Source of the DNA: Acidobacteriota bacterium
GTDB taxonomy: Bacteria > Acidobacteriota > CAIWXX01
DNA length: 64,000 nt
NCBI GenBank assembly: GCA_016191015.1
Contig: JACPPM010000301.1
Coordinates: forward strand, 5,472 to 69,471
Reading direction: 5' to 3'
The translations under genes were made by a program, and so were the position numbers. Positions 1-62,115 of this stretch are shown piece by piece (within the stretch, counting starts at the first letter, position 1; the number at the start of each line of letters is the position of its first letter). Under the pieces are notes generated by a model. It saw only the letters and a program-made list of their open reading frames with translations. It was not told the origin of the DNA and ran no database searches.

Positions 1-239
1 AAAGCAAAAGTGAGCCGAAACGGCCCTCTCTGAAACAGAGGACCGAGGTGCTCGTGCGTGAGATGCTCGAGCGCGGCATCTACCTGGAGGAGGCAAAGAA
101 GGAGTTCGAGAAATCCTTCCTGTCGCTCGCCCTTGGCATGGCCTCGCAGAACCAGTGCAAGGCGGCCAAGATCCTGGGCCTCCACCGGAACACGCTTCGT
201 TCCAAACTTCGCCTCTTCGGGCTCGACCACAAGAAGTAG
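1..239 (+). CDS. C-terminal fragment of a sigma-54-dependent Fis-family transcriptional regulator (HTH_8 domain); 5' end lies outside the window
   Basis: Open frame from position 3 to TAG at 237-239. AAKILGLHRNTLRSKL is the Fis-type HTH typical of NtrC-family activators. Confidence 0.6.
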   Translation, partial: SKSEPKRPSLKQRTEVLVREMLERGIYLEEAKKEFEKSFLSLALGMASQNQCKAAKILGLHRNTLRSKLRLFGLDHKK

Positions 240-375
240 CCATTAGTCTTTAGCCCTTAGCCATTAGCTGAGGAACGGGATTCAGGTCATCGGCCGCGGC
301 AGACGGACCACGCCCGAGTGCTATTCGCGCCGGTGGGCCGTTCGGAGCTAGTAGCTAACGGCTAAGGGCTAGCAA
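239..375. repeat. Extragenic palindrome, TTAGCC-heptamer type (copy A). Left arm 239-271 overlaps the TAG stop; right arm 345-375; spacer about 73 bp
   Basis: Left arm agccattagtctttagcccttagccattagctg. The reverse complement of right arm gagctagtagctaacggctaagggctagcaa matches it with 1-2 mismatches. Period-7 NNNTTAG units. Confidence 0.8.
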
Positions 376-12100: not shown

Positions 12101-12856
12101 ATGGCACAGTTGAAGGTCCTGGTCGTCGAGGACAGCCCGACGCAACAACTCAAGACTCGTCTTCCCTTACTCAATGCGGGCTACGAAGTGGTCGTCGCGG
12201 CAAACGGCGAGGAGGGGTACCAGGCCGCGCTGGCAAACAAGCCGTCCGTGATCCTGCTCGACATGGTCATGCCCGTTTGTGACGGACCCGGCATGCTGGC
12301 CAAGATCAAGGACGCTCCCGAGCTCCGCGACATTCCCGTGATCATGCTGACGGCCACCTCCGAATCAGAATCCATCATGAATGCGATTTCGATGGGGGCG
12401 AAGGACTATATAGTCAAGCCATTCTCGATCGAGGTGTTTGAACAGAAGCTGACCAAGTTCTTCCGCCATCTCAACCCCAATCTGAGCCAGACCGAACGGA
12501 TCGCGGCCGAGATCGACCGGAAGATCATCCGATACGACGAGTACGAGGGGGCGCACTTGTTCGAGGTCAAACCGGACAATATGAAGCTCGGCCTCAAGTT
12601 GGTCTTCTCCTATATCCGGCGCTTCCTGGCCATCGGCGAGCGTAATTTCGTGATCGACTTCTCTTCGTACCCGTCGCTTCCGGATGAGGCGATGACTACG
12701 CTCGTGGCCTGCATGTCCTCGCTGCAGAAGGGATCTGAGATCGTTCGCTTCATCGTGACGAATCCCAAGGTCCAAGGGCAGCTCCAAAGCGCGCCGGACA
12801 CGGCCTACGTCGGGATTCTGCGAAGTCGGAAAGAAGTCGTGCGGCACGGCTTCTGA
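12101..12856 (+). CDS. Response-regulator receiver domain fused to a STAS (anti-sigma-antagonist-like) domain
   Basis: KVLVVEDS...ILLDMVMP...DYIVKPF is a REC domain. The C-terminal FVIDFSSYPSLPDEAMTTLV region is STAS-like. Alternative start at 12065. Confidence 0.7.
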   Translation: MAQLKVLVVEDSPTQQLKTRLPLLNAGYEVVVAANGEEGYQAALANKPSVILLDMVMPVCDGPGMLAKIKDAPELRDIPVIMLTATSESESIMNAISMGAKDYIVKPFSIEVFEQKLTKFFRHLNPNLSQTERIAAEIDRKIIRYDEYEGAHLFEVKPDNMKLGLKLVFSYIRRFLAIGERNFVIDFSSYPSLPDEAMTTLVACMSSLQKGSEIVRFIVTNPKVQGQLQSAPDTAYVGILRSRKEVVRHGF

Positions 12857-13027
12857 GTTCAAAGTTCAAAGTTCAATGCTCCACCCCGGAACGGCGGGCG
12901 CCGGTGTGGGCCTGAGCGCCGTCGGTCCCGTCGCATGAACATATTGCGGTCTGGGCACTCTCGCTTCACCCGAATCACCCGGGGCGCCTCCGGGTACTTT
13001 GAACTTTGAACTTTGAACTTTGAACTT
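12855..13027. repeat. Extragenic palindrome, GTTCAAA-heptamer type (copy B), filling the whole intergenic space
   Basis: Left arm gagttcaaagttcaaagttcaatg overlaps the TGA stop at 12854-12856. Right arm ctttgaactttgaactttgaacttc runs into the start of the next ORF. Spacer about 118 bp. Confidence 0.85.
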
Positions 13028-14801
13028 CTTGCACTATGTTATCGCGGTGACAGAGCACCAGATTCGGAGTGATGCGGAATTCATCCTGAGGGCGAGCAAG
13101 GTCCTCAACTCGACACTGGATTTCGATGAGCTGCTGACGCGGATTGTTGAGCTCACGGCCGAGGCGGTCGGTGCCGAGACCGGTTCGCTCCTTCTCTACG
13201 ACGAACGGCGCGGCGGACTGATCTTCGAGGTCGCGTTGGGTGAGAAGGGGGATCTGATCAAGGAGTTCGTCGTCGGGCCGGGCCAAGGAGTGACGGGAAG
13301 GGTGTTCGAGACCGGAGAGCCTGCGGTCGTCAACGACACTCAGTCGTACGCCGCGTTCTCGGGGACGATCGACAAGAAGGTGGGGTTCGAGACCCGTTCG
13401 ATCCTTTGCGTTCCTCTCCTGCTGCGCGGAAGGACGATCGGCGTGGTCGAAGCGATCAACAAATCGCGGGCCCGGCTTTTCGACGATCAGGATCTGCGGA
13501 TGATGCGATCTCTCGCGGACCTCATCGCCATCGCGATCGACAACAGCCGACTGTACTTGCAGGCCAGGTTGGAGAGGCTCGAGAACCAGTCGCTTCTGGA
13601 AGTGGCCAAGCGGGTCAACTCGGCCCTGAAGCTCGACCAGGTCCTCCAGATGATCGCCGACTCGATGCATCAGGTCATCCACTTCGACGCGCTGGCCATC
13701 TACCTGGTCAGACCAGGCACACGGGACATAGACCGCCTCATCCTGAACGGCTTCGACGAGCACCAGCACGATTCTGTGAGGCTGAAGGTGGGAGAAGGGA
13801 TCGTGGGGTGGTGCATCAGCAATGGCGAGTCCACTCTCGTGGCCGATGTTTCCCGCGACCCACGATACGTGAAGGCGCGCGACGAGACGCGTTCAGAGAT
13901 TGTCGCGGCTCTGTTTGTCGGGGGCCGCTGCATCGGTGCGATCAACCTCGAGAGCAACCGCATGTCCGCCTGGGATCAGCACCAGCTCGAGCTGCTCCGC
14001 GCATTTGCCGGACAGGTGTCTATCGCGATCGAGAAGGCGATGCTGCACCAGGAGCTCCTCGAGAAGAAGGAGCTCGAGCAGGAGCTCAACGTGGCCCACC
14101 GCATCCAGCGCACGTTCCTGCCGCGTCACCAGCCCGTCATCCCTGGCTACGATGTCGCCGGCCTGAACATCCCATCCGAGAAAGTCGGCGGTGACTACTA
14201 CGATTTCATCCGGATCATCGACACACAGCTCGGAATCGTGATCTCCGACGTCTCCGGAAAGGGGATCCCGGCCGCGCTGATCATGGCGAGCTTCAGGGCG
14301 AGCCTGTTGGCCGAAATCCGGAACAACTTCGCCATCCGCACGATCATGGCCAAGGTCGGGAAGCTTCTGCGGGAGTCCATTGAGCCACACCACTTCGTGA
14401 CGGCTCTGTACGGAGTCCTCGACATCCCCAACCGTGTTTTCACTTACGCAAACGCGGGGCACAACCCGGCAATCCTCATCCGCGCAGATGCGAGTGTCAA
14501 GTTCCTCAAAGACGGCGGCCTGCCCCTCTGCGTCCTCGAACAAGCCACCTACGCTGAAAAGCGCTTGCAACTGCGGGTCGGAGACCTCCTCGTGTTCTAC
14601 ACCGACGGAGTGACCGAGGCGTTCAACGAGCAGGAGGAGGAGTTCGGGCTCGAACGCCTCATCGCGGCTCTCCTGGCCGTCTACCCTCTGAGCGCTCGAG
14701 ACATCGTGGGGAGTGTCGCACAGGTCATCAGGGAATTCAACGGTACCGCTAGCCCCTCCGATGACCTCACTCTCGTAGCCCTCAAGTGCGTCCCCATTTG
14801 A
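13020..14801 (+). CDS. GAF-GAF-PP2C (SpoIIE/RsbU-like) serine phosphatase
   Basis: Two GAF domains (LLYDERRGGLIF...; ...IGAINLES...) followed by a PP2C domain (GGDYYDF...ISDVSGKG...YTDG). Start is uncertain: TTG 13020 lies inside the repeat, and GTG 13050 is possible. Confidence 0.85.
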   Translation: MNFLHYVIAVTEHQIRSDAEFILRASKVLNSTLDFDELLTRIVELTAEAVGAETGSLLLYDERRGGLIFEVALGEKGDLIKEFVVGPGQGVTGRVFETGEPAVVNDTQSYAAFSGTIDKKVGFETRSILCVPLLLRGRTIGVVEAINKSRARLFDDQDLRMMRSLADLIAIAIDNSRLYLQARLERLENQSLLEVAKRVNSALKLDQVLQMIADSMHQVIHFDALAIYLVRPGTRDIDRLILNGFDEHQHDSVRLKVGEGIVGWCISNGESTLVADVSRDPRYVKARDETRSEIVAALFVGGRCIGAINLESNRMSAWDQHQLELLRAFAGQVSIAIEKAMLHQELLEKKELEQELNVAHRIQRTFLPRHQPVIPGYDVAGLNIPSEKVGGDYYDFIRIIDTQLGIVISDVSGKGIPAALIMASFRASLLAEIRNNFAIRTIMAKVGKLLRESIEPHHFVTALYGVLDIPNRVFTYANAGHNPAILIRADASVKFLKDGGLPLCVLEQATYAEKRLQLRVGDLLVFYTDGVTEAFNEQEEEFGLERLIAALLAVYPLSARDIVGSVAQVIREFNGTASPSDDLTLVALKCVPI

Positions 14802-14999
14802 GGGACTAGGGGCTAGGGACTAGGGTCCGGACCGATCTTGGCGCGGATCGGACACCACGTGGGTGCGACGCTTGCCTGACCCCCGGTGGGGTGGCTTCTT
14901 GATGGTCCGGAGATCGGTTCAATCCTTCACGGTGCTGACAATCTCTTGTCAAGGTCTCGGCGCTGTGGGCGTAGTCCCCAGCCCCTAGCCCCTAGCGCC
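14802..14999. repeat. Extragenic palindrome, CTAGCCC-heptamer type (copy C)
   Basis: Left arm gggactaggggctagggactagggtcc begins 1 bp after the TGA stop. Right arm gtagtccccagcccctagcccctagcgcc. About 142 bp spacer that holds a perfect TGACAA-N4-TTGTCA palindrome. Confidence 0.85.
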
Positions 15000-15280
15000 T
15001 ACTTTTCATTCTGGCAGCCGGCACGGGCGTTATAGGAATGTATGCCTGTGCGGACGGGTCTGGAGAATTGACGAACCCCTCGTTGCCACGCATCGTGAAG
15101 GCCAGGACTTTTGGCTCTCTGGCGGGAGCTGGGTCTTCAGCCGCGGGCTCGGCGTGCCCCACAGAGATTCCGAAGCGCATACAGAGCACCACAGAAGACG
15201 CGCTCCCTCAGAGAGATCATGAGAGGGGCGATTCCGGTATTCCAATCAACTTATCCCATGGGGAGAGGAGACCAGGCGAG

Positions 15281-26865: not shown

Positions 26866-26872
26866 TCCTTTT

Positions 26873-26901: not shown

Positions 26902-27229
26902 AAAAGCGGATTCCTGCGAGATGGCGGGCGGCAGAGGCCGTGTTCGTCGTCCGCTTGTGGGGGCGTGACGTTTTTTGCACCGTGCGGCCGACCGGCTTGC
27001 TTCCCGATTGAGAGTCGCAGCTCACCGCAGAGCGGTGGGAGTCGACGGGGCGATCGACGCGACGCTCAACGGGACCGAGGCAGACAGGGACATACCGGCA
27101 CGGTTACTCCGTCCAGCATGGCAAAGTCACCGCGCGGCCGCGCCGCGATCGACGCCGACGACACGACCGACACCTTCGCCGAGGGACGCGCCGCCGGCCA
27201 TCAGCTCCAGGCGCTCGTGGCATGTCCGA

Positions 27230-27484
27230 GACACCACAGACTGGGGCTACATGATCCAGAACGCGGGAAACCGGCTGCGATACATAGCCGAGCGTCACAA
27301 GATCGATTCGCGTTGTCGTGAGACAGTACACACGAATTCGAACTACACCTCAATCATTTGGGTGTACGCTTACAACGAATGGGGAGAGGGTGCAGGGATC
27401 GAACAGCTTACGCAGGGAACGCCCAAATTCCCTTACCGTTTCGGCCTCGATATGCTTGATACCCTCAAGAACACACGGCCATGA
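27230..27484 (+). pseudogene. C-terminal remnant of a paralog of the 21066-22328 secreted hydrolase
   Basis: ...TSIIWVYAYNEWGEGAGIE... aligns with STIIMYAWNELSEGGWI near the C-terminus of the full-length gene. No N-terminal catalytic part is present. Confidence 0.4.
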
Positions 27485-28104: not shown

Positions 28105-28237
28105 TCAGGATGGAGGCGCCGGGGTTCCGCGATAGCACGGAGCCCCGGTGCTCCTGCCCTGTCGGCTCGCCGCTGACGCACGGGGCAGCGCGCCGCAGAG
28201 GACCTTACGCCCGATCACGAGAGAACCCGCGACCGTA

Positions 28238-29512
28238 ATGAGACGGCATTTGATGGATGCGCTAGGCCGAGTAGCCAGTCAGTGGGAGCTCCTTGGGAGT
28301 CAAGATCCCCTGTGGGCAGTTTTGACACACTCGGGGAAGCAAGGTGGTCGTTGGTCGTTGGAGGAGCTCATGGCGACCGGTGTGGAAGAGGTGGACAACA
28401 TCCTTCGAGAGACGGCAGAACTGCGAATCGCCGTGCCGCCCCGGAGAGCCTTGGACTTCGGATGTGGCGTCGGGCGTCTCACACAGGCGCTTTGCCGTCA
28501 CTTCGATCATTGCGACGGGGTCGATGTCGCCACATCCATGATCGCGGCCGCAAGGCGGATCGACGCGTATCCGGACCGCTGCTCCTATCACCTGAACAGG
28601 TCTCCAGACCTGCGGCTCTTCTCTGAGGGAAGCTTCTCTTTCATCTACTCGTCCCTGGTGCTCCAACACATGCATCCCGATCTCGCCTGCCGCTACATAC
28701 GCGAGCTCATCCGGGTTCTCGCCGGCGACGGCGTACTCGTCTTCCAGATCCCGACCGCGGGTCATTCATCGGCCTCGGACGCTCAGACAAGCTCATGCTA
28801 CCCGCACCCGTTACCGGAGTCCGCGCTTCGAGCGACGATAGCAGTATCGATGGCAGCATCGCGCGCATCGGCCGGAGAGCAGGTCTTGATCACCGCAACC
28901 GTGGAGAATTCTGGGACCTGCACATGGCCCTCATCACCATCCTGTAACGCCCGATACCGCATACAGATGGCGAACCGTTGGCTGACCCCACAGGGATGTG
29001 TCTACCAACAGGACGACGGGAGATGCCCTTTGCCGCGGGACCTTGCTCCTAGTGATCGAATCGAGCTGACTCTGCTCGCCACCGCGCCTGGCGCCCAAAT
29101 CTTGGAACTGGACATGGTGCCGGAGGATGTGTGCTGGTTTCAGGCAGTCGGCTCCACGCCTGCTCGTCTGTGGTTCGATGTCCTGACGCCTGGGTCCGTG
29201 AGTACCCCGATCATCCACCCGACACACACGCCGCCTGTGCCCCGTCCGATAATGCGGCGGCCGTTTCGGTACCGCTGGCCACGTACGACGGATCTTCTCG
29301 AAAGGCTGCGGCTATGGGGCTGCCTCCGGTCAGTCAGGGGCTGGTTTCGTAGGGATGTCCGAGCCGGCGTGTCAGTTTCGATGGACATGTGCGAGGTCCC
29401 AAGGTGTACGTCCGAAAACCTGATCAGAGATTGCCATGCCGAACTGCGGGCAGCGCGGACGGAAATCTGGGATGCTGGCATCCACAGCACCCGTTACTGG
29501 GTGACGAAATAA
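28238..29512 (+). CDS. Class I SAM-dependent methyltransferase with a long Cys/Trp-rich C-terminal extension
   Basis: Motif I LDFGCGVGRL and post-I DVATSM. Start chosen at MRRHLMDAL. Confidence 0.65.
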   Translation: MRRHLMDALGRVASQWELLGSQDPLWAVLTHSGKQGGRWSLEELMATGVEEVDNILRETAELRIAVPPRRALDFGCGVGRLTQALCRHFDHCDGVDVATSMIAAARRIDAYPDRCSYHLNRSPDLRLFSEGSFSFIYSSLVLQHMHPDLACRYIRELIRVLAGDGVLVFQIPTAGHSSASDAQTSSCYPHPLPESALRATIAVSMAASRASAGEQVLITATVENSGTCTWPSSPSCNARYRIQMANRWLTPQGCVYQQDDGRCPLPRDLAPSDRIELTLLATAPGAQILELDMVPEDVCWFQAVGSTPARLWFDVLTPGSVSTPIIHPTHTPPVPRPIMRRPFRYRWPRTTDLLERLRLWGCLRSVRGWFRRDVRAGVSVSMDMCEVPRCTSENLIRDCHAELRAARTEIWDAGIHSTRYWVTK

Positions 29513-29554
29513 TCCTGAGTAGGATCACAACCATCGACGGCAGGAACCACTCTG

Positions 29555-29659
29555 ATGGAACGAATACGGGATCGAATCGCAGACCCGGCGCTGATGGCGA
29601 TCTTGGGGAAGCTGCAGGATGAGCAGCGACTGGACTTCGTGAAGAAGAGTGCGCGGTGA
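29555..29659 (+). pseudogene. 5' remnant (34 codons, then stop) duplicated from the radical-SAM MqnC/E gene at 25765
   Basis: MERIRDRIADPALMAILGKLQDEQRLDF versus MERIRNRVTDPALKGILQKLQDGRRLDF; about 80% nucleotide identity over about 85 bp. Confidence 0.65.
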
Positions 29660-30012
29660 TGAAGATGCCGAACCACTGTGGCAGATTATTTCGGAGTGCG
29701 GGAGCGCAGCTCCCGCTTTCTCGGGACCGAGTACCTGTGTGAACCCGAAAGCGGCAGCTTCGCTGCCGCACTCCAAAGGCCGTCCCGCCGGTCGGCTGCG
29801 AGCAGCGGGCGCAGCGGAGATGGGGCTTTCTTGGCACGAGGCCGCGTTGGGGGCGGCTGCTGTACCCATCATTCCAGCATTCCACTATTCCTCTCGCTCC
29901 GTCCACAGGTTCGCCGCGAGCCATTGATTCTCAATTGGCTATAGAGTTTCCGAGACGAGATCGCCTTTGCGCGCCCGGCGCCTTTGCGCTAGAGTTCCGC
30001 TGGGTTGTGACA

Positions 30013-30774
30013 ATGACTGACGCGCGCATATTGCGGATCGGGCGAATGCCTTACCTCAATGTCGCACCCTTCTACTTCGATCTCGAAGCCCTCCGGCCTT
30101 ACGAGATCATCATGGGCAGTCCGCTGGAACTGGGCGAGATGGCCCGCCGCGACGAGATTGACATGGGTCCGCTATCTCTGCTCGACACTCTCTCGCTTCC
30201 GGAGATGGAGCCGATCGACGACCTCGCTGTGGCGTGTGAGGGGCCGGTGGGCAGCGTTCTGCTGTTCAGCGATCGTCCTTTCGCTGATCTTGGAGCCGCG
30301 AGAATAACGGCGACGACGGAGAGCGTGACGTCCATTCGTCTCCTGGAGGTTCTCCTGCGGCGCGCAGGCATCAACGGTTTCCACCTTCAAAGGAGTGGCG
30401 AGGCCGCGGACGCCCTCCTGCTCATCGGCGATTCCGCGCTGGCCGAGGTGCGGCGCGGGGTCTGGAGTTTCGTTACTGACCTGTGCGAAGAGTGGACGCG
30501 GCTCGAGCATCTCCCGTTCGTTTTCGCTCGGTGGGTCGTTCGGATCGGGACGCCCCGCATCGATCTCATCGCGCGGACATTACAAGAATCTCTCGACAAA
30601 GGACTCTCCGACCTGCCGGCCGTCCTGAAGGCCTTCCCGTCGCCCGTCAGCAGCGATGAAGCGCGTGCCTACCTGAACGGGTTCCTGTACAGGCCGGGCA
30701 GTCGAGGGGATCAGGCCATTGCGCGATTCCAAACTCTCCTGGGGGAATATGGAAATCAGCGGGCTCCTCGATAA
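30013..30774 (+). CDS. mqnA: Chorismate dehydratase MqnA (futalosine pathway)
   Basis: ILRIGRMPYLNVAPFYF N-terminus and periplasmic-binding-protein-like MqnA/MqnD fold. ORF-track start at 29935 is probably over-extended. Confidence 0.75.
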   Translation: MTDARILRIGRMPYLNVAPFYFDLEALRPYEIIMGSPLELGEMARRDEIDMGPLSLLDTLSLPEMEPIDDLAVACEGPVGSVLLFSDRPFADLGAARITATTESVTSIRLLEVLLRRAGINGFHLQRSGEAADALLLIGDSALAEVRRGVWSFVTDLCEEWTRLEHLPFVFARWVVRIGTPRIDLIARTLQESLDKGLSDLPAVLKAFPSPVSSDEARAYLNGFLYRPGSRGDQAIARFQTLLGEYGNQRAPR

Positions 30775-31849
30775 AGCGGCGTCGGGAGAACGACTGACGG
30801 CTGGGGAAGCGTTGCAAACGTTCCGTTCAGCACCCCTCCTGGATCTCGCCCACGCCGCGCACGGCATCCGCAACCGGAGGGCACCCCAGGGTCAGGTGAC
30901 ATTCGTCATCGACACAAACCCCAACTACACCAACATCTGCGACACTGACTGCACGTTTTGTGCGTTCTACCGGAAGCCGGGCGACAACGAGGAAGGGTAC
31001 ACACTCACGGTCGACCAGATAGCAGCCAAGATCCAACCTGCCGTGGATGCGGGAGCATCGACGCTTCTCATGCAGGGAGGTCACAATCCGGCTCTTCCGC
31101 TCTCGTACTATATCGACCTGATCCGAGGTCTCCGCGAGCGTTTCCCGCGGCTCCATCTGCACCTGTTTTCGGCGCCCGAGGTCAGGGCCATCGCGAAGTT
31201 CTGCGCTCTCACTGTGAGGGAGGTGCTCGCCGCGTTCTGGGACGCGGGGCAGCGGACCCTGCCTGGGGGAGGAGCCGAGATCCTGACGCAACGCGTCCGC
31301 CGGAAGATCAGCCCGAAGAAGGGCGCGCCCGAGGAATGGCTCGACGTGATGCGGATCGCGCACCAGATCGGATACCGGTCGACGGCGACGATGATGTTCG
31401 GCCACGTCGAAGCCGACGAGGACATCATCGAGCATCTGGATGCCCTCCGGCGGCTGCAGGATGAGACGGGTGGTTTCATGAGCTTCATTCCCTGGAGCTT
31501 CAAGAAAGGCGACACACCTCTGTCGAGGATCGTTAAGACCGAGGTGGCGCCGGCGCGCTATCTGAGGATCCTTGCCGTCGCGAGGCTCTTTCTGGACAAC
31601 TTCGCGCACATACAGTCATCCTGGTTTTCCGAAGGGCGCAAGGCCGGGCAGCTCGGGTTGTGGTTTGGCGCGGATGATTTCGGAGGAACGATTCTCGAAG
31701 AAAATGTGCTCCGATCCGCGAAGTTCGTGAATACTACTTCTGTAGAGGAAGTGAAGATGCTGATCCGGGAAGCCGGCTTCACGCCGGCTCGGCGCAACTC
31801 ATTTTTCGAGGTCCAGGAAACGTTGAGTGTCCAAGAAGTTGGGTATTGA
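30749..31849 (+). CDS. Radical-SAM menaquinone biosynthesis enzyme, MqnC/MqnE family (paralog 2)
   Basis: CDTDCTFCAF cluster; start at MEISGLL; 26-bp overlap with mqnA. Confidence 0.85.
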   Translation: MEISGLLDKAASGERLTAGEALQTFRSAPLLDLAHAAHGIRNRRAPQGQVTFVIDTNPNYTNICDTDCTFCAFYRKPGDNEEGYTLTVDQIAAKIQPAVDAGASTLLMQGGHNPALPLSYYIDLIRGLRERFPRLHLHLFSAPEVRAIAKFCALTVREVLAAFWDAGQRTLPGGGAEILTQRVRRKISPKKGAPEEWLDVMRIAHQIGYRSTATMMFGHVEADEDIIEHLDALRRLQDETGGFMSFIPWSFKKGDTPLSRIVKTEVAPARYLRILAVARLFLDNFAHIQSSWFSEGRKAGQLGLWFGADDFGGTILEENVLRSAKFVNTTSVEEVKMLIREAGFTPARRNSFFEVQETLSVQEVGY

Positions 31850-32086
31850 CATGAAATGGCAAGAACCTCGCCGGGGCGAGATCTTCCGGACTCCTCTCAG
31901 GAAAGCAGGAAGTGAGGAAGGCAGGAAAGGACCCGTCATATCGGACGCTCAGGGTGGCACGGACCGCTCTCACGCTCTCACGCTCCAGGCGCGCGAAGCG
32001 CGCCGGACGCTCTCACGCGCGGCCGGTGTTACGACGGCGGTGGTGGCCGGGGCGAGGCGCTGACAGTGAACGAATCGAAGGTGGTG

Positions 32087-32908
32087 ATGCAGGCCGGATG
32101 CAGTCCCGATCCTGACGATGTTTTTATGTTCTACGGATTCGAGAAGGGCCTTGTCGAAACGCCTTTCAGGATCGAGCCGCGATACGAGGATATCCAGACG
32201 CTGAACCGCAAGGCACTTGACGGTGTGTACGAGATCTCAGCCATATCAGCCTACATGTATCCGTTTGTCTGCCACCGCTACGCCTTGCTCGCCGCCGGGG
32301 CCAGCGTCGGGAGGGGCTACGGACCGGTTATCGTGGCGAACCGCCGCTATGATGCCGACGATTTGAGGAAGCTGAGCGTGGCGATCCCGGGCAGGTTCAC
32401 AACATCGTATCTGCTCTGCCGCATGTATCTGCCGGCCTTCAAAGAGATCGAGATGCCATTCGAGGATGTCGTGCCGGCGCTGATGGACCGGGACGTGGAT
32501 TGCGCCCTTCTCATCCACGAAGCTCAGATCACCTACAGAGAGCTCGGTTTCTACAAAGTAGTCTCTCTCTACGACCTCTGGCATGGTTCCACGGGTCTCC
32601 CGCTGCCACTCGGACTCGAGGCGGTCCGATTGGCGGAGGCCGATCGCTGGGGCCGCGCGATCAACGATGCTCTCGTCCTCAGCATCGAGCTGGCGAAGCG
32701 GGACTTCGAACCCGCCATGGAGCATGCGATCTCTCATCGGCAGACCGGTCTCGCTCCCGCCCAGGGGCGGAGGTACCTGGAGATGTACGTGAACGACGAC
32801 ACCTTGGGGATGCCGGCGGACGTTCGCAAGGCCCTTGAAATGATGTACACGACGGCACACGAGCTGGGGCTGATTCCGGAAGTGCCTCCGCTCAGGATCG
32901 TGGAATGA
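32087..32908 (+). CDS. mqnD: 1,4-dihydroxy-6-naphthoate synthase MqnD
   Basis: MQAGCSPDPDDVFMFYGF matches the MqnD SPCPNDTF N-terminal signature. Confidence 0.75.
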   Translation: MQAGCSPDPDDVFMFYGFEKGLVETPFRIEPRYEDIQTLNRKALDGVYEISAISAYMYPFVCHRYALLAAGASVGRGYGPVIVANRRYDADDLRKLSVAIPGRFTTSYLLCRMYLPAFKEIEMPFEDVVPALMDRDVDCALLIHEAQITYRELGFYKVVSLYDLWHGSTGLPLPLGLEAVRLAEADRWGRAINDALVLSIELAKRDFEPAMEHAISHRQTGLAPAQGRRYLEMYVNDDTLGMPADVRKALEMMYTTAHELGLIPEVPPLRIVE

Positions 32909-32917
32909 CGATGAATC

Positions 32918-33019
32918 AGAGTTCAAAGTTCAAAGTTCCAAGTTCAAGCCCGCGTCGATCCTGTGGGCGTGGACCTGCGGGTCCCGTTGAGCTCTGAACT
33001 TTGAACTTTGAACTCATGC
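32918..33019. repeat. Extragenic palindrome, GTTCAAA-heptamer type (copy D)
   Basis: agagttcaaagttcaaagttccaagttcaag ... ctgaactttgaactttgaactcatgc; begins 10 bp after the mqnD stop and ends 31 bp before the pyk start. Confidence 0.85.
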
Positions 33020-37485: not shown

Positions 37486-37517
37486 CCGGCCCTAGCCCCT
37501 AGCCCCCAGCCCCTCTC
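37486..37517. repeat. Single-arm CTAGCCC heptamer array abutting the dapF stop (copy E)
   Basis: ccggccctagcccctagcccccagcccctctc lies immediately 3' of the dapF TGA on the minus strand. Confidence 0.7.
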
Positions 37518-39923: not shown

Positions 39924-40396
39924 GTGATTTCTCCAGGGAATGTGCTTCGCCTCTCTGCGCTGACCATCGGGCCCCGAGGCTCGTCGACCCACGGAACCCC
40001 CCGACCTCTCCCGAAAACGCTTAGCTGCTGGTCCTGACCCGGTTCGTGCCTGTCCGGCGGCTCCAACGGTGTCCAGATTATAGCTGTCGCTACTTCCCAA
40101 GGGAAGTGACGACCGAGCGACCCTCGCGATGGGGGGCCGAGGCGGGAAGCGGGGTCCGGCGAGTTTCTTCCGATCCCCCGCCGCAGATTGCGCCGACCGG
40201 CCAGCCCTTTCAGCGACCAGGAACCGAGCTCGCCCTGGCATCAACTCCGTTCAATCGGGAAACCTGCGAGTCGATCTGTGATATCTTCGGTTTGCGGGAA
40301 GATGGGCGGTGCGCTGCCGATTCTTTTCTGTTGACAGTCCCCCCTGCCTGTATTATCCTTCGATTTTGCGCTCTGGCTTTGGAGAGAACAGGAGTT

Positions 40397-40837
40397 ATGA
40401 AGACATATTTCCCGAAAGATGGGGACGTGAAGCTCGGCTGGAAACTACTGAACGCCGAAAACGTTGTGCTCGGAAGGCTCGCCACAGTTGCAGCGCGCAT
40501 CCTGTTGGGGAAAGACAAGCCGCAGTACACGCCCTTTCTCGCTGTGGGCGACGGGGTGATCATCGTCAATGCCGACAAGATCAAAGTGACCGGCAAGAAG
40601 TTGACGGACAAGAAGTACTATCACTACAGTGGTTACCCGGGGGGCATGAAAGAGACGAGCCTGGAGGCTCTCTTCGCCCAATCGCCGGCCAAGGTCGTGG
40701 AAGAGGCGATTTACGGAATGTTGCCGAAGAACAAGCTTGGCAAGCAGCTCCGGACTCGCATCAAAGTCTACACCGGCTCGGATCATCCCCACGCAGCCCA
40801 GACACCGGAGCCGGTTGCGCTCCCGACCCGATACTAG
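40397..40837 (+). CDS. rplM: 50S ribosomal protein L13
   Basis: MKTYFPKDGDVKLGWKLLNAENVVLGRLAT. Confidence 0.95.
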   Translation: MKTYFPKDGDVKLGWKLLNAENVVLGRLATVAARILLGKDKPQYTPFLAVGDGVIIVNADKIKVTGKKLTDKKYYHYSGYPGGMKETSLEALFAQSPAKVVEEAIYGMLPKNKLGKQLRTRIKVYTGSDHPHAAQTPEPVALPTRY

Positions 40838-40849
40838 GAGGAGATCAGT

Positions 40850-41242
40850 TTGGCTAGGATAGAATACAACGGTATTGGACGGCGAAAGTCCTCGACTGCC
40901 AGGATATGGCTGCGGCCCGGTAAGGGAGTTTTCACGGTCAACAATCGCCCGTTCGACGAGTACTTCGTGACGCCGAGTCAGAAGATGTCCGTGAAGCAGC
41001 CTTTGCTGCTCACCGAGACCGTCGACAAGTTTGACATTCTCGCGCTCTGCGACGGCGGCGGTGTAACGGGGCAGGCCGGTGCAATGCGCCTTGGGATTGC
41101 CAACGCGCTGGTCTCGTTCAACACCGAGCTGCGCAAGAAATTGAAGAAAGCCGGGTTCCTCACCAGGGACAGCCGGTCGAAGGAACGGAAGAAATACGGG
41201 CAGAAGGGTGCCCGGAAGCGCTTCCAGTTCTCCAAGCGGTAA
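40850..41242 (+). CDS. rpsI: 30S ribosomal protein S9
   Basis: [19 protein letters not shown]...KRFQFSKR. Confidence 0.95.
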
Positions 41243-41253
41243 TCAAAGGAGGT

Positions 41254-42084
41254 TTGTCCTTGTCGTCTGTCACGATGAAAGAGCTGCTGGAAGCCGGAGT
41301 CCACTTCGGTCATCAGACCAAGAAGTGGAATCCCAAGATGAAGGAATATATTTTCGGCGAGCGCAACGGGATCTACATCATCGACTTGAAGAAAACCCTG
41401 GCGCTCTTCAAGACCGCATGCAACTTCACCTTGGATCTGGCCTCGCACGGTGGGCGGCTCCTCTTTATCGGTACGAAGCGGCAGGCCAAGGACATCATCG
41501 CGGAAGAGGCGTCGCGAGCCGCGGCGTTCTACGTCAATCAGCGATGGTTGGGCGGTCTGCTGACTAACTTCTCCACGATTCAGCGTTCGATCGAGCGCCT
41601 CAAGGAGCTCGAGGAGATGAAGAGGGACGGGCGCTGGGAAGAGGTGTTCACGAAGAAGGAACAGACCCGGATGGAGAAGGAGAAGAAGAAACTCGAGAAG
41701 AACCTCGCGGGGATCCGCGATTTGACCGCCCGGCCCGACGCGATCTTCGTGATCGACTCCAAGAAGGAGACGATCGCGATCAGCGAGGCGAGACGGCTCG
41801 GCATCCCCGTCATCGCCGTGGTCGACACCAATTGCGACCCCGAAGACGTCGATTACCCGATCCCGGGCAACGACGACGCGATCCGTGCCATCAAACTCTT
41901 CGTCTCCAAGATCGCCGATTCGATTATCGAAGGCAGGGGCGTCCTCCAGGGGGCGAAGGCCGTCGAGGAGAAGATCGCAGCAGATGAGGAAGCCGGCGGG
42001 ACAAATGTGCCGTCGGATCTGGCCGGTGTCGGGGCGATGTCGCCTGCGGGCTCAGCAGCTCACACTGCGCACGCCCGCGTCTAG
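41254..42084 (+). CDS. rpsB: 30S ribosomal protein S2
   Basis: [22 protein letters not shown]; start is either TTG 41254 or ATG 41275. Confidence 0.95.
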
Positions 42085-42189
42085 CCGTCACGAGAGGAGG
42101 TGCCGGTTCGCGGCATCGCCTGCGTGAGCACAAGAGCTTTGTTCGGTGTTCAACGGGAACACCGCTGATTTGCAGGAAGAGGTAGGAAC

Positions 42190-42789
42190 ATGGAGATTAC
42201 GTCTGGAATGGTCAAGGACCTCCGTGAACGCACCGGGCTCGGAATCATGGAGTGCAAGATGGCCCTCGGTGAGACCAAGGGCGACATGGAAGAAGCGATT
42301 GTGTACCTGAGGAAACGCGGGCTGAAGATCGCGGAAAAGAAGTCCGGCCGGACGACCTCTGAGGGAGTCATCGGAGCCTACATTCATGCTGGCGGCAAGA
42401 TCGGGGTCATGGTGGAGGTGAACTGCGAGAGCGATTTCGTGGCGAAGAACACGGATTTCGCATCGCTGGTCAAGGACATAGCGATGCACATTGCGGCTTC
42501 CGATCCGCGGTTCATCGCCAAGGAGGATGTCACCGAGCAGGTTCTGGCACGCGAGCGGGAGATCATCGCCGAGCAGCTGAAGAGCTCCGGCAAACCCCCC
42601 GACATGATCCCCAAGATCGTTGAGGGGAAGCTGCAGAGCTATTACTCCGAAGTGTGTCTGCTCGAGCAGCCGTTCGTGAAGGACCAGGCCCTCAAGGTGA
42701 GGGACGTGCTGGCGGCCTTTATCGCGAAGAGCGGTGAGAATGTCACCATTCGGCGCTTCACGCGTTATCGGATGGGTGAGGACGTCTAA
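42190..42789 (+). CDS. tsf: Elongation factor Ts (short form)
   Basis: [19 protein letters not shown]. Confidence 0.95.
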
Positions 42790-42824
42790 TTGGTCTGGAC
42801 TCCGTCGGAGCGGGACAGCCGATA

Positions 42825-43547
42825 ATGGCCGAGAGCGCGACCGCCGTCTACAAACGGATCCTCCTAAAACTGTCCGGCGAGGCGCTGATCGGGGAGAGAG
42901 GCTACGGCATCGATTCTGCGATGACACAGTCGATCGCGGGAGAGATCCGCGAGGTCAGGGAGCTCGGCACCGAGGTTGCGATCGTCATCGGCGGAGGCAA
43001 CATTTTTCGTGGCGTAGCCGCCACTGCGGCCGGCATGGAGCGCGTCGCGGGGGATCACATGGGCATGTTGGCGACGGTCATCAACGGTATCGCCCTCCAG
43101 GATGCGCTCGAGAAACAGAATGTCTTCACGCGCCTCATGACCGCCATCGAGATGCGCGAGGTCGCGGAACCCTACATCAGAAGACGCGCGGTGAGACACC
43201 TCGAAAAGGGCCGTGTGGTCATTCTCGCGGGCGGCACGGGCAATCCGTATTTCACGACCGATACTGCCGCGGCGCTGCGCGCGATGGAGATCAAGGCTGA
43301 AGCGATCCTGAAGGCGACCCGAGTTGATGGCGTCTACACGGCCGATCCGAAGCTCGACAAGACTGCAATGAAGATCGACCAGATCAGCCATCTCGATGTC
43401 CTCAAGCGAGGGCTAAAGGTCATGGATGCCACCGCCATCTCGCTTTGTATGGACAACCAACTCCCCATTCGTGTCTTCGATCTGCGGGTTCGAGGGAACA
43501 TTCTCAGAATCGTGCGCGGCGAGCCGATCGGCTCGTCAGTGTCTTGA
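42825..43547 (+). CDS. pyrH: UMP kinase
   Basis: [12 protein letters not shown]...GGGNIFRG. Confidence 0.95.
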
Positions 43548-43548
43548 T

Positions 43549-43668
43549 CAGCCATTAGCCCTTAGCTCCGGACCGGACTTGCGCGTGAGCACGAAATAGA
43601 TGGCGGGCGAACACATGTTGCGCCTCTGCGCTAAAGGATAACGGCTACGGGCTAATCGCTGACGGCTG
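43549..43668. repeat. Extragenic palindrome, TTAGCC type (copy F), 2 bp after the pyrH stop
   Basis: cagccattagcccttagctccgg ... taacggctacgggctaatcgctgacggctg. Confidence 0.8.
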
Positions 43669-43748
43669 CTTCGCCGCCGTCCGCGGTTTTGTCCGCACGC
43701 GCGCCCCTGTGATAGAATCTCATTTCTTCTGCAGACGAGGAGGCGGAA

Positions 43749-44303
43749 ATGAAGGACGTCATCACCAGGAACAAGGCCAGGATGGAGCAGTCCATTGACG
43801 TGTTCAAACGTGAGCTGGCCGGGGTGCGGAGCGGCCGGGCGACAATCAGCATTCTCGACGGGATTCACGTCGAATACTACGGGACAATGACGCCGCTGAA
43901 TCAGGTGGCGACTCTGCAGGCTCCCGATGCCAATCTCCTGACCGCCCAGCCCTGGGACCTCAGCCTTCTCGCCGCGATCGAAAAGGCGATCCGCAAGAGC
44001 GATCTGGACCTGAATCCGGCCAACGATGGAAAGGTCATCAAAATCCCCATCCCGCCGCTCAACGAAGAACGCCGGCAGAAGCTGATCAAGCACATCCACA
44101 AGCTCGCAGAGGACTCGCGCAACGGTCTCCGTATGATCCGCCGGGATGCAAACGAGGAGATCAAGAAACTCGAAAAAGAGAAGAAGATCAGCCAGGATGA
44201 CGAGCGTCGCGGTCTCGAGCAGATCCAGAAACTCACCGACGACCACACCACCAGGATCGAAGAGCTGCTCAAGAAGAAGGAACAGGATCTCAAGACTGTT
44301 TAG
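43749..44303 (+). CDS. frr: Ribosome recycling factor
   Basis: Full-length Frr similarity. Confidence 0.95.
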   Translation: MKDVITRNKARMEQSIDVFKRELAGVRSGRATISILDGIHVEYYGTMTPLNQVATLQAPDANLLTAQPWDLSLLAAIEKAIRKSDLDLNPANDGKVIKIPIPPLNEERRQKLIKHIHKLAEDSRNGLRMIRRDANEEIKKLEKEKKISQDDERRGLEQIQKLTDDHTTRIEELLKKKEQDLKTV

Positions 44304-44305
44304 AG

Positions 44306-44455
44306 CTGGCAGCCGTTAGCCCGAAGCGTCTGGTTCGGAGACTCTGGGCGAACGGATACGGGCTCTGCTGGCATTCCCGCTGCAGCGAGAGGGCCGCCGT
44401 TACAGGTCCGGTCCGGAGCTAATAGCTAACGGCTGATAGCTAATGGCTAACCAGC
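44306..44455. repeat. Extragenic palindrome, TTAGCC type (copy G), 3 bp after the frr stop
   Basis: ctggcagccgttagcccgaagc ... ggagctaatagctaacggctgatagctaatggctaaccagc. The right arm overlaps the 3' end of the convergent gene. Confidence 0.8.
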
Positions 44456-45403
44456 TACCGGTTTCGGAGCGAACCACGGCTGGCCCGTACCGAACTTGGT
44501 CGCGAGGGTCGCGCCCATGCCGATGATTCCGAGGATCGTCCAGATCAACCAGCCGATGACAGGCAGGAACTGGACGAGGCCGAGTAGGGAGAGGCCTGCC
44601 AGCACGGCCAGCACGTCGGAATTCGCATCCCAGCGCAGGGCGTTGAGGATCCTCGTACCACAAAAGTAGTAAATAGAGACATTCCCGAAAACTTTGATGA
44701 GGACGGCGAAGACGCTCAGGAGCAGGAGCAGAGGGATTCCGACGAGGACGAGACAGAGGAGGGCGAGCAGAACGACCATGACGATCAGGGCCATGAACCA
44801 GAGGAAGCCGACGAGGGCAAATCGCCCGAAATGCGCCGGGATCTCCGAGGCCGTGTGGCGGATCTGAACCGGAAACGCCAGGACGACAGCGGCGGCGATC
44901 AGGAACCAGGTGAAGAGCATGATGATTCGAATGCCGACCACGAGCGGCGTCCAGCTCTGTTTCAGCGGATCGAAGGAGACCGCCTTGATGACCCAGTCGC
45001 CGAGCTCTTCAGAGGTCTTGATGTAGACGAATTCCCCCAGGACCCGCGACCCTTCCGCTCTCTGCGGCCTGGGACCGATGCAGACCAGATCACCGCGGAC
45101 GATCGCATGGGGCCCGAGCTTCACATCGGCTCCAACGCCAACGACGTCTCCGTCGGCGGTCCCGTTCAGCTCGAGGCTTCCTCCGATCGCGGCGACAGTC
45201 TTCCGTGCAGTGCCGTCGACGCTGATGTGACCGCCGATGGCCACCAGGTCCTCTTTGGCCTCTTCGCCCGATGCGATGTGGATCTCGCGCTGCAGCGGCT
45301 GCAGCGGCTCGGGACCGACCCTGGCGCGAGCCATCCCCGCCGCCGCCAACACCAGCAGGGCGGCGGCCGGGAGCGTCGGCGCGGGGAAGTGGAAAGCCTT
45401 CAT
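44447..45403 (-). CDS. Membrane protein with an N-terminal beta-helical (bactofilin/DUF4097-like) repeat region and a multi-TM C-terminus
   Basis: Signal peptide, then GxxVxGDxV repeats, then 4-5 TM helices. 4-bp overlap with the upstream anti-sigma gene. Confidence 0.6.
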   Translation of the reverse strand: MKAFHFPAPTLPAAALLVLAAAGMARARVGPEPLQPLQREIHIASGEEAKEDLVAIGGHISVDGTARKTVAAIGGSLELNGTADGDVVGVGADVKLGPHAIVRGDLVCIGPRPQRAEGSRVLGEFVYIKTSEELGDWVIKAVSFDPLKQSWTPLVVGIRIIMLFTWFLIAAAVVLAFPVQIRHTASEIPAHFGRFALVGFLWFMALIVMVVLLALLCLVLVGIPLLLLLSVFAVLIKVFGNVSIYYFCGTRILNALRWDANSDVLAVLAGLSLLGLVQFLPVIGWLIWTILGIIGMGATLATKFGTGQPWFAPKPVAG

Positions 45404-54333: not shown

Positions 54334-54408
54334 GCTGCCTCCTGCAAGTCGCTGGCAACAATACTACATGCCGAAGCAACGCGGGGCAAATTGTTGAGCA
54401 GGAGCAAG

Positions 54409-54575
54409 GTGGAGCGTAGAGCGTGGAGCGTGGAGCGTGGAGCATGCAGGTAGTGGCGAAGCAGGGTCGTGCACGATGACGGATGCCTACAGGGATCAGG
54501 AACCCGAATCGTCTGGTCCGGCCTAGCCCCTAGCCCCTAGTCCCTGGTCCCTAGTCCCAAGTCCCTAGCCCCTGG
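54409..54575. repeat. Composite array: (GGAGCGT)x5 at 54409-54448, then (CTAGYCC)x7 at 54522-54575 abutting the stop of the upstream minus-strand gene (copy H)
   Basis: ggtggagcgtagagcgtggagcgtggagcgtggagc ... tccggcctagcccctagcccctagtccctggtccctagtcccaagtccctagcccctgg. Confidence 0.8.
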
Positions 54576-59863: not shown

Positions 59864-59867
59864 CTTT

Positions 59868-59920
59868 TGGAACTTTGAACTTTGAACTTTGAACTTTGAA
59901 CTTTGAACTTTGAACTCATC
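59868..59920. repeat. (TTTGAAC)x7 single-arm array between the TetR and ADH genes (copy I)
   Basis: ttggaactttgaac... x7, ending in aactcatcatgc; shares its tail with copy D. Confidence 0.85.
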
Positions 59921-60994: not shown

Positions 60995-61957
60995 ATGACA
61001 TATTTCGAACCCAAATCCCCCGGAGAATTCGGATTCAAGGACATCATCTATGAGAAGAAGGACGGTGTGGCGCGCGTCACGATCAACCGTCCCAAGTTTT
61101 ACAACGCCTATTCCTCGCTGGCGCTCGAGGAGATGACGAAGGCCTTCACGGACGCGTCATGGGACGACTCGATTGCGGTCGTTGTGTTGACGGGCGCAGG
61201 GGACAAGGCCTTCTGCACCGGTGGCGACGTGAAGGAGTACGCGACCAGCTACACGCGCCGGCCGCACGACTACTGGAAATGGATGGGACTGTTCAATGGG
61301 GCACACGATGTGCTGCGCAACATCGGCAAGCCGACGATTGCCCGGTTGAATGGAATGGTGGTTGGAGGCGGCAACGAATTCAACATGGCCTGCGATCTGG
61401 CAGTGGCGGCCGAGCACGTCGTGATTCGGCAGGTGGGTCCGCGGGTGGGCTCGGTCCCGGCCGGGGGTGCCACCCAGTGGCTCCCGATCATGGTCGGCGA
61501 TCGGCGCGCGCGTTGGATGCTCTACATGTGCGAAGAGCTCGATGCAACGACCGCGCTCGACTGGGGTCTCGTCAACTTCGTCGTTCCTCTGGACAAGCTG
61601 GATGAGAAGGTCAACGAGATCTGCGAAAAGCTGAAGGACAAGTTTCCCGAGTGCCTTCGCTATACCAAGCAGCAGACGAACTTCTGGAAGGATCTTTCCT
61701 GGCACACAACGATTGGTCACGCACGCGATTGGCTGTCGCTGCACTATCTCTCGGCCGAGGTGCACGAGGGGATGAACTCATTCGTCGAGAAGCGCCAACC
61801 GGACTATCGCGGGATGCGGCAGAAGGCCGCTGAAGGGAAGAGTAGCGAGTACGTCTGGGGGCCATACGCGAAGGTTTGCGGGAAATGCGGGGCGAAATAC
61901 ATTCCGGAGGACTTCAAGTTCTGCGGAGCGTGTGGGGAGGCGTTGGGGAGCAGTTAG
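60995..61957 (+). CDS. MenB/BadI-family crotonase (1,4-dihydroxy-2-naphthoyl-CoA-synthase-like) with a C-terminal CxxC...CxxC zinc ribbon
   Basis: DIIYEKKDGVARVTINRP, LTGAGDKAFCTGGD and EGMNSFVEKRQPDY track MenB closely. Extra tail CGKCGAKYIPEDFKFCGACG. Confidence 0.75.
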   Translation: MTYFEPKSPGEFGFKDIIYEKKDGVARVTINRPKFYNAYSSLALEEMTKAFTDASWDDSIAVVVLTGAGDKAFCTGGDVKEYATSYTRRPHDYWKWMGLFNGAHDVLRNIGKPTIARLNGMVVGGGNEFNMACDLAVAAEHVVIRQVGPRVGSVPAGGATQWLPIMVGDRRARWMLYMCEELDATTALDWGLVNFVVPLDKLDEKVNEICEKLKDKFPECLRYTKQQTNFWKDLSWHTTIGHARDWLSLHYLSAEVHEGMNSFVEKRQPDYRGMRQKAAEGKSSEYVWGPYAKVCGKCGAKYIPEDFKFCGACGEALGSS

Positions 61958-62115
61958 CAATTAGCCCTTTGCCGTTAGCTATTAGCTTCGAGCGGTCGTC
62001 CCCGTCTGAATGCCGGTCGCCGGCCGCTGGGAGCGTCGGCGCCGGGATGGTGCTCATCACACCCATGACCCGGGGACAACCGCACGGAGCTAATGGCTGA
62101 ACGCGAACGGCTACT
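61951..62115. repeat. Extragenic palindrome, TTAGCC type (copy J), between convergent genes
   Basis: cagttagcaattagccctttgccgttagctattagcttc ... ggagctaatggctgaacgcgaacggctac. The left arm contains the crotonase TAG stop and the right arm contains the acs stop. Confidence 0.8.

Follow-up and report, generated by a model that had tools for sequence, protein, structure and literature searches.

The ribosome recycling factor gene, frr, of an uncultured member of the Acidobacteriota is bracketed by two inverted repeats, and the question that this locus raises is whether they are devices that set the expression of frr or copies of a more widespread repeat. The stretch of DNA analysed, hereafter the window, comprises 64,000 nt with a G+C content of 61% and holds four repeats of this type, referred to as elements A, F, G and J, of which F follows pyrH and G follows frr. 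An earlier reading of this DNA (the sequence-only reading) had proposed that the elements share a conserved core of about 20 nt, and that those around frr could decouple its expression from that of the operon to which it belongs. From the analysis described here A, F, G and J appear instead to belong to a population of extragenic hairpin repeats that is specific to the lineage. They are probably, though by no means certainly, intergenic heptanucleotide tandem repeats of the type known as long simple-sequence repeats (LSSR) or STRR, which behave like REP/BIME sequences at the 3′ ends of transcripts; a function in RNA is suggested by their sequence and position.

Each element is an inverted pair of arms flanking a centre of 65–95 nt, and the arms are tandem heptamers, TTAGCC-like in the 5′ arm and GCTAA-like in the 3′ arm. 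In A the left arm (237..269) reads TAGCCAT/TAGTCTT/TAGCCCT/TAGCCAT/TAGCT, and a GC-rich centre (270..342) separates it from a right arm (343..373) formed by CGGA, then GCTAGTA GCTAACG GCTAAGG GCTAGC. The left arm of F (43548..43566; TCAGCCA TTAGCCC TTAGC) carries the palindromic junction TCCGGACCGGA at its inner edge (43567..43577). It is followed by a centre of 65 nt (43578..43642) and by a right arm without the CGGA junction (43643..43669; GGCTACG GGCTAAT CGCTGAC GGCTGC). G begins with a degenerate left arm (44304..44322; AGCTGGC AGCCGTTAGCCC) and a degenerate junction palindrome with two mismatches (TCTGGTTCGGA, 44329..44339). The second exact copy of the junction palindrome (TCCGGTCCGGA, 44407..44417) lies at the inner edge of the right arm of G (44414..44458), which consists of CGGA, then GCTAATA GCTAACG GCTGATA GCTAATG GCTAACC AGCTAC. 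Finally, J has a left arm (61954..61989) of TTAGCAA TTAGCCC TTTGCCG TTAGCTA TTAGCTT and a right arm (62085..62114) of CGGA, then GCTAATG GCTGAAC GCGAACG GCTAC.

A 21-nt core, CGGAGCTARTRGCTAACGGCT, is found at five sites in the window at up to three mismatches, against 0.00 expected. Two of these, both exact, are on the plus strand in the right arms of A (343-363) and G (44414-44434); the other three are on the minus strand in the left arms of A (252-272), F (43550-43570) and J (61970-61990), so that the left arms do carry the reverse complement of the core, as had been noted for F and J. The right arm of J, to which the core had also been assigned, matches over the first ~15 nt only (CGGAGCTAATGGCT), then diverges, and is not among the five sites. 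The further claim, that the conservation extends beyond a simple repeat, holds only to a minimal extent. Alignment and blastn-short reveal heptamer arms and a CGGA junction only, the latter on one arm per hairpin, and the ‘core’ is essentially the repeat unit, two or three copies of RGCTAAN joined to CGGA. In neither a four-way alignment nor an all-against-all blastn-short comparison are the centres of the four elements alike, and no Rfam match at gathering thresholds points to a small RNA or a conserved centre. A check by alignment and covariation had been suggested; applied to the four copies it was negative, since the centres are unrelated and the covariation term from RNAalifold is ~0, the arm pairing being recovered as three short helices split by variable positions. 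Folded as single strands, the elements form long hairpins (z −1.3 to −6.6) that are alike on both strands. The inverted arms and predicted hairpins thus bear out the view that the copies are a family of hairpin elements.

The placement of the elements is closely tied to stop codons. F starts one base past the pyrH stop codon (TGA, 43545-43547) and G starts right at the end of the stop codon of frr (TAG, 44301-44303; frr at 43749..44303 on the plus strand, PF01765), which confirms that frr is flanked on both sides. The first repeat unit of A and that of J take in the TAG stop codon of the gene upstream (237-239, an HTH_8 gene; 61955-61957, enoyl-CoA hydratase). In G and J the last repeat unit contains the stop codon of the convergent gene, read as CTA, which is that of a DUF8173 gene on the minus strand in the right arm of G (44447-44449) and that of acetyl-CoA synthetase in J (62111-62113). 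The elements extend from the stop codon on their upstream side as far as the following gene or, where this is convergent, its stop codon. At such positions a hairpin in the RNA could influence the 3′ ends of transcripts, in line with the sequence-only reading.

One comparison among the four elements gave a non-trivial match. The left arm of F (43547-43578) and the reverse complement of the right arm of G (44406-44437) share 32 nt at 90.6% identity. The match holds an exact 11-nt palindrome, TCCGGWCCGGA, exact copies of which occur at these two places only in 64 kb; at up to two mismatches the palindrome is found at chance-level frequency. The conserved, copied module is the arm, sometimes together with a few junction bases.

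To establish what the elements mean for frr, the locus was compared with loci on other contigs, which are given L numbers. The gene order rplM-rpsI-rpsB-tsf-pyrH-frr is borne out by Pfam. The assumption that rpsB-tsf-pyrH-frr are usually co-transcribed holds only in part: in E. coli pyrH and frr have promoters of their own. The sole sigma-70-like match in 41000-45000, TTGTCC-18-TAGAAT with a TG upstream (an extended −10, TGnTAGAAT; 43689..43718, plus strand), lies downstream of F and 30 nt before the frr start codon. The TGnTAGAAT box is kept in L202, which has F, and in L002 and L203, which do not. As it is conserved with and without F, frr is most likely transcribed on its own whether or not F is present, judging by this putative promoter. 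A promoter between F and frr would also place F at the 3′ end of the pyrH transcription unit and not inside a pyrH-frr mRNA, while G sits between the two convergent 3′ ends of frr and DUF8173.

L202, whose Frr is 99% identical, has both F and G. Neither is present in the four next relatives, L203, L003, L204 and L002 (Frr 80–85%), which in 53 kb combined have no intergenic heptamer arrays at all. The pyrH-frr spacer is 75 nt in L203 (Frr 85%), where frr overlaps DUF8173, and 107 nt in L002 (Frr 80%); in L003 and L204 the gene upstream of frr differs. Between the window and L202 the frr coding sequence is 93% identical with 0 gapped columns and the promoter plus 5′ untranslated region 89% identical with 12, compared with 80% and 26 gapped columns for F and 78% and 90 for G. 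The centre of F is ~33 nt in L202 and is unconserved. Since F and G are missing from four relatives and evolve faster than the neighbouring promoter and coding sequence, they appear to be recent and dispensable. L202 keeps the left junction of F and has a more intact left arm in G, and its right arm of G is without the F-left-like module; the 32-nt inverted repeat around frr in the window would therefore be a very recent arm copy. On this comparative evidence the bracketing of frr appears to be a recent event in this lineage and not a conserved regulatory design.

The interval occupied by G in the window (44304-44446) and in L202 holds a small 4Fe-4S ferredoxin gene in L002 (6556-6910), L003 and L204, and L203 has neither the gene nor G between frr and DUF8173. 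The centre of G was considered as a relic of the ferredoxin gene and this was rejected, as the best local alignment was marginal against L002 (p ~0.05) and nothing was found against L003.

The elements are not special to frr. A census of spacers of 60–600 nt in the window with a lag-7 test found 7-nt arrays (TTAGC, CCCTAG and AGTTCAA units) in 8 of 29, and a few more carry 8-nt arrays. Most of the arrays have an inverted partner, and the pair folds into a long hairpin that stretches from the preceding stop codon to the gene that follows. By TRF and lag-7 autocorrelation heptamer arrays were located at 237-268, 12856-12876, 14801-14825, 44417-44450, 54522-54573 and 59870-59916, among others, and the pattern TAG-N4-TAG-N4-TAG occurs 10 times against 0 expected.

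An unselected set of 44 Acidobacteriota frr loci, in which 274 spacers were scored, has lag-7 arrays in 39 spacers compared with 0–3 at lags 5, 6, 8, 9 and 10 (Fisher p = 2e-11). By spacer type these fall in 35 of 192 co-directional, 3 of 42 convergent and 1 of 40 divergent spacers (p = 0.008). An inverted partner lies within ~220 nt for one third or more of the arrays, against 0 in the control. A scan of metagenomes with the core pattern gave matches in at least 120 contigs. Heptamer-arm hairpins, of which 82 were collected, show the same distribution (49 co-directional, 7 convergent, 2 divergent) and typically begin ~10 nt past the stop codon of the preceding gene, leaving ~18 nt between their end and the next open reading frame (ORF). 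The elements thus avoid promoter-only (divergent) spacers, and they are quickly gained and lost between close relatives.

In five loci (L085, L098, L137, L167 and L183) the right arm closes with the unit GCTAGGAGCT, 8–10 nt ahead of an ATG; this unit would supply a Shine–Dalgarno sequence, which the hairpin stem would sequester. Hairpins with heptamer arms are not confined to the Acidobacteriota and are also present in metagenome-assembled genomes (MAGs) of the Thermomicrobiales (L058) and Nitrospirae (L018). Examples from L058 are AGTGACG/CGTCACT and GAGTCGG/CCGACTC arms, and the GTGAC unit has the polarity seen in acidobacterial loci.

The repeat unit is degenerate in a regular manner. Its logo is G C T A(0.89) A(0.83) N R, with position 6 free (0.04 bit), and the RGCTAAN unit is common to distant Acidobacteriota classes. 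At the free position adjacent units are barely more alike than expected (0.35 against 0.26), which is not as expected from recent slippage of single units. The arms keep one polarity, 5′-(NTTAGCY)n…(RGCTAAN)n-3′ on either strand, to which 66 pairs conform and 5 do not (p = 1e-14); for unselected pairs independent of the search pattern the count is 35 to 0. Pairing alone does not require this polarity. The other unit families likewise keep a single polarity, although neither stop codons nor purine-richness provided a consistent rule for it across families on inspection. Single arrays have no preferred orientation relative to transcription (23 against 23). At orthologous sites the arms are 81–95% identical, similar to the flanking coding sequence (75–94%), whereas the centres are 54–64% identical with many gaps. 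Arm length shifts by slippage of whole units, as is seen in a clean 14-nt (two-unit) indel in one arm of the nearly identical contigs L151 and L181.

In the mechanism proposed, each arm would be built from some three to five degenerate heptanucleotide units, N-TTAGC-Y in the 5′ arm and R-GCTAA-N in the 3′ arm, inverted around an apparently unconstrained GC-rich spacer of ~40–150 nt. When transcribed, the elements would form interrupted hairpins of 20–35 bp at the 3′ ends of the transcripts of pyrH (F) and of frr and DUF8173 (G). Most plausibly these would serve as 3′-end barriers or insulators, through protection from 3′ exonucleases, partial termination or sites for double-strand RNases. The frr gene would be driven by its own conserved promoter downstream of F, and its bracketing would include an F-left-like arm module newly copied, in inverted orientation, to the right of G.

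Several observations weigh against a 3′-end hairpin population of this kind. The four window copies have no U-tracts or T-runs, and there is no canonical terminator on the plus strand of 41000-45000. At the free position there is no covariation from arm to arm (0.56 observed, 0.56 in the shuffled-unit null). When stem mismatches are oriented by the flanking genes, G.U-type (45) and A.C-type (53) are found without sense-strand bias, and this parity does not suggest that RNA pairing specifically is under selection. Furthermore, slippage combined with tolerance leaves unexplained the polarity of the arms, the sharing of RGCTAAN across distant classes and the conservation of the core, features that together point to some sequence-specific agent.

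Of the alternatives, one that is unlikely but still live is that the elements are true non-autonomous mobile elements, REPIN- or MITE-like. They would be copied by an enzyme that recognises hairpins and has its gene in another part of the genome, perhaps a Y1 HuH transposase (acidobacterial TIRYT or class 3 type), and the arms would be the sites at which it acts. Patchy presence among close relatives, strict arm polarity as in REP doublets, the apparently recent copying of an arm-plus-junction module and arms that are conserved while the interior decays would all fit. Acidobacteria also encode distinct Y1 transposases flanked by repeats, some of them high-copy (PMC3733652; PMC6006769), and the CGGA junction fits the ‘CnGA foot’ of class 3. 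This is opposed by centres without homology even inside one 64-kb window, by the lack of target-site duplications in the flanks inspected by eye and by arms that are tandem repeats rather than single palindromes, with CGGA on one of them only. Neither a transposase nor a Y1_Tnp domain is present among the ~58 window proteins scanned with Pfam, and the class 3 cognate motif, CnGA-GCCGCGACCGTNAGGGAGCG, is not in the window. A somewhat less probable proposal is a phylum-wide code, in which RGCTAAN/NTTAGCY and its sister units are read by a sequence-specific factor that keeps the core, with its one free position, and imposes the invariant polarity; this could be an RNA- or single-stranded-DNA-binding protein with a heptad footprint or a new hairpin-processing enzyme. 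A shade more doubtful again is that the arrays are periodic sites for a nucleic-acid-binding protein with one unit per ~7-nt footprint, such as a cold-shock-domain protein on RNA or single-stranded DNA, and that inverted pairs are switchable hairpins regulating termination or translation of the flanking genes. Five to six fixed unit positions beside one that is fully free and non-covarying would suit such a protein, as would a core conserved to the level of coding sequence, the recurrence of RGCTAAN in distant Acidobacteriota and the strict polarity. Right arms often end 6–10 nt before a start codon, some supplying AGGAG, and binding of Csp, S1 or CsrA has been proposed for TAACTGA heptamer arrays (PMC4679880). 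However, the absence of arrays from the nearest relatives leaves no conserved regulon at these genes, single arrays have no orientation bias, and several unrelated units coexist in one genome.

The remaining two explanations have little probability. The view of the sequence-only reading, that the elements are intercistronic devices which split the rpsB-tsf-pyrH-frr mRNA and tune the expression of frr, is considered very improbable. It can draw on the position of F and G, on the stability of the predicted hairpins and on the recurrence of heptamer arrays beside frr in other Acidobacteriota classes (14/46 upstream, 7/46 downstream), but these frequencies are not clearly above the 18% of co-directional spacers generally and come from phylogenetically non-independent loci. 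It is contradicted by an frr promoter conserved with or without the elements, by their absence from four relatives and by their fast evolution, with 78–80% identity and many indels beside a gene at 93%. Hardly any weight is given to the last explanation, that the elements are pure mutational by-products of 7-nt replication slippage and of palindrome extension by template switching, with neither function nor selection. Such an origin would account for indels in unit number, for perfect arrays such as (GAACTTT)6.7 and for neutral-looking stem mismatches (98 transition-type against 49 other, without strand bias), and a slippage hypothesis has been published (PMC4679880; PMC4692102). It does not account for conserved core positions next to one free position, at which adjacent units differ, for arms that are conserved while centres randomise, for the strict polarity or for the depletion in divergent spacers.

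The elements are best classed with intergenic heptanucleotide tandem repeats, and they share architecture and genomic niche with REP/BIME/REPIN sequences. Among the long simple-sequence repeats of bacteria, heptanucleotides are the most frequent according to Mrazek (2007), as summarised in PMC4679880. Those of Xanthomonas and Nostoc (GGGAATC, GGGGAYT) are intergenic, lie near ORF ends, are rarer between divergent ORFs, vary between close relatives and are of unknown function (PMC4692102), and TAACTGA heptamer repeats occur in Beggiatoaceae and cyanobacteria (PMC4679880). The window arrays resemble these groups, the LSSR of Mrazek and the cyanobacterial STRR included, in their 7-nt period with few units per array, in a strong intergenic bias near ORF ends with fewer copies between divergent genes, and in length and sequence that vary between close relatives. 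They also have the head-to-tail 7-nt unit, in three or more copies, that defines a tandem repeat, together with the period-7 and non-coding excess and the divergent depletion. They differ in that inverted pairs, occasional elsewhere, are the rule in Acidobacteriota and have strict polarity, and in a unit that is degenerate with one free position, not perfect, and without G-quadruplex potential. In the literature searched there was no description of such repeats in Acidobacteriota. The kind of repeat is already known; the Acidobacteriota form, with its own features, is new.

REP/BIME/REPIN sequences of Proteobacteria are similarly extragenic, occupy co-directional and convergent and rarely divergent spacers, and form inverted doublets of 20–35 nt modules in fixed orientation around a less conserved spacer, giving a long hairpin. 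Their copy number is likewise lineage-specific, and the roles proposed for them are stabilisation of mRNA 3′ ends, termination and protein binding. The extragenic inverted doublet of fixed orientation is found here too (66:5; 35:0 unselected), whereas the palindromic module with GT[AG]G is not. The window arms are tandem heptamers instead of imperfect palindromes, have CGGA on one arm in place of a GT[AG]G foot, and belong to several unit families per genome; no RAYT is encoded among the ~58 window proteins.

Other known elements are less similar. The cognate of class 3 HuH-Y1 enzymes is a single hairpin of 25–29 nt, CnGA-GCCGCGACCGTNAGGGAGCG (PMC6006769 supplement). These and the acidobacterial TIRYT repeats (PMC6006769; PMC3733652) share with the window elements an acidobacterial host and high-copy extragenic structures, and the 5′ CnGA recalls the CGGA preceding one arm, a likeness of four bases only. 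A link to class 3 was rejected, as hairpin motifs of the GCCGCGACCGTNAGGGAGCG type have 0 matches in the window at up to three mismatches. MITEs were rejected because no internal sequence is shared among A, F, G and J, or between two further elements (C and E4, described below), and because orthologous centres are only 54–64% identical; the 1.6 Mb of loci showed no autonomous partner, although no search was aimed at one. Intrinsic terminators, including bidirectional ones, also place a hairpin right after stop codons and between convergent genes, and about one third of metagenome GCTAA arrays have a short T-rich outer tract (79/243, ~33%, against 23/243 for the inner flank). The window stems, by contrast, are much longer and interrupted every 7 nt, with loops of 40–150 nt and without a U-tract. 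Identity with intrinsic terminators was rejected on the lack of both a terminator-like site on the plus strand of 41000-45000 and T-runs in A, F, G and J.

The same hairpin construction is found with other units elsewhere in the window, e.g. at 12850-13030, 14800-15002 and 32914-33016. CCCTAGN arms occur at 14800-15002, 37487-37515 and 54520-54573, and AGTTCAA arms at 12850-13030 and 32914-33016. The CCCTAG and TTAGC units are one base apart and are swapped at an orthologous position, the left arm of F having CCTTAGC in the window and CCCTAGC in L202. A (T)CCGGA junction is often joined to both units, and all eight non-coding GGTCCGG sites lie inside CCCTAG/TTAGC-type elements. The junction was rejected as a general signal: GGTCCGG/TCCGGA is enriched in the elements of this genome, but the sequence 5′ of CGGA is unconserved among the metagenome matches listed.

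Element D (14800..15002) starts at the stop codon of a SpoIIE-type phosphatase and has arms (AGGGRCT)n/(AGYCCCT)n, giving TAG every 7 nt, with the inner junction GGGTCCGGACC. Element H (54408..54573) combines in one spacer a (CCTAGYC)7.4 array, a GGTCCGG junction (54515) and a non-complementary (GTGGAGC)5 array. Pairing of these unlike arrays via G.U was rejected, since on either strand shuffled sequence folds more stably than the element does (z ~ +1.9). Element E5 (37487..37515), a single (CCCTAGC)n array with a CCGG junction, adjoins the dapF stop codon; the ksgA-dapF spacer in which it lies measures 252 nt, compared with 28 nt in L203. Element C (12850..13030), an (AGTTCAA)3/(TTGAACT)4.6 hairpin, fills the spacer between a response regulator gene and a phosphatase gene. 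Element E4 (32914..33016), an AGTTCAA-type hairpin, lies between mqn and pyruvate kinase genes, and the centres of C and E4 are unrelated. Element I (59865..59919) is a perfect single (GAACTTT)x6.7 array that fills the whole spacer between the genes for a TetR-family regulator and a zinc alcohol dehydrogenase (ADH); slippage of its unit number would alter the distance from stop to start codon.

Octamers are used in a similar fashion. A hairpin of ACGCAAAG / CTTTGCGN with a 13-nt loop (4385-4455) lies in a 559-nt spacer, nested in a second inverted repeat with 25-nt arms (4316-4340 / 4510-4534), and a single ACGCAAAG array is present at 26874-26906. At 31898-31985 (CAGGAAAG)4 and (CGCTCTCA)2.6 arrays share the 216-nt spacer of two mqn (futalosine pathway) genes, with a TTCCGGA junction directly upstream of the (CAGGAAAG)4 array. 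A GC-rich inverted repeat at 29690-29777 (TTCGGAGTGCGGGAGCGCAGCTCCCGC…) has 31-nt arms, 87% complementary, and a 26-nt loop, and lies in a 422-nt spacer between methyltransferase and mqnA-like genes; unlike the other elements it is not heptamer-based. Several of these repeats are interspersed in a menaquinone (futalosine-route) and prenylated-flavin gene cluster (22618-32908), which encodes UbiA, a UbiX-like flavoprotein, UbiD, two radical-SAM proteins of MqnC/E type and two VitK2_biosynth proteins (MqnA/D-like).

The window is represented by an identical 4.8-kb contig (L001) in run SRR12113390, and its Frr protein is 80–83% identical to those of two Acidobacteriota MAGs (L002 and L003). On the opposite strand beyond frr, Pfam identifies DUF8173, an anti-sigma factor, an ECF sigma factor and LolA. 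At the other end of the gene series the longest ORF for rplM (40046-40837) encodes 263 amino acids, with the L13 domain confined to residues 132-248, and translation probably begins near 40440. A single Rfam match at E ≤ 1, c-di-GMP-I-GGC at 40393-40496 within this ORF (22 bits compared with a gathering score of 59), is probably due to chance.

For frr itself the outcome is deflationary, since its bracketing is recent and its own promoter is kept. For annotation the elements matter because at least a quarter of the longer spacers in this genome is occupied by such hairpins. Stop codons and, in some cases, Shine–Dalgarno positions overlap with them, assemblies break at them, and both gene calling and the search for non-coding RNA can be misled. 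They also offer a tractable case for why 7-nt tandem repeats dominate the long repeats of bacterial intergenic DNA, with three features that go beyond simple slippage: a core as conserved as coding sequence, a single position that is free and a polarity that does not vary. Should there be a protein or enzyme that reads the arrays, it could be found in cultured Acidobacteria (Terriglobia) with the same RGCTAAN unit; MAGs of the Terriglobia have RGCTAAN hairpins immediately downstream of frr (L025, L041 and L044). Were the phylum-wide code to prove true, the hairpins of the Acidobacteriota would be intercistronic switches of a new class, controlled in trans, or else domesticated replicators of a new type.

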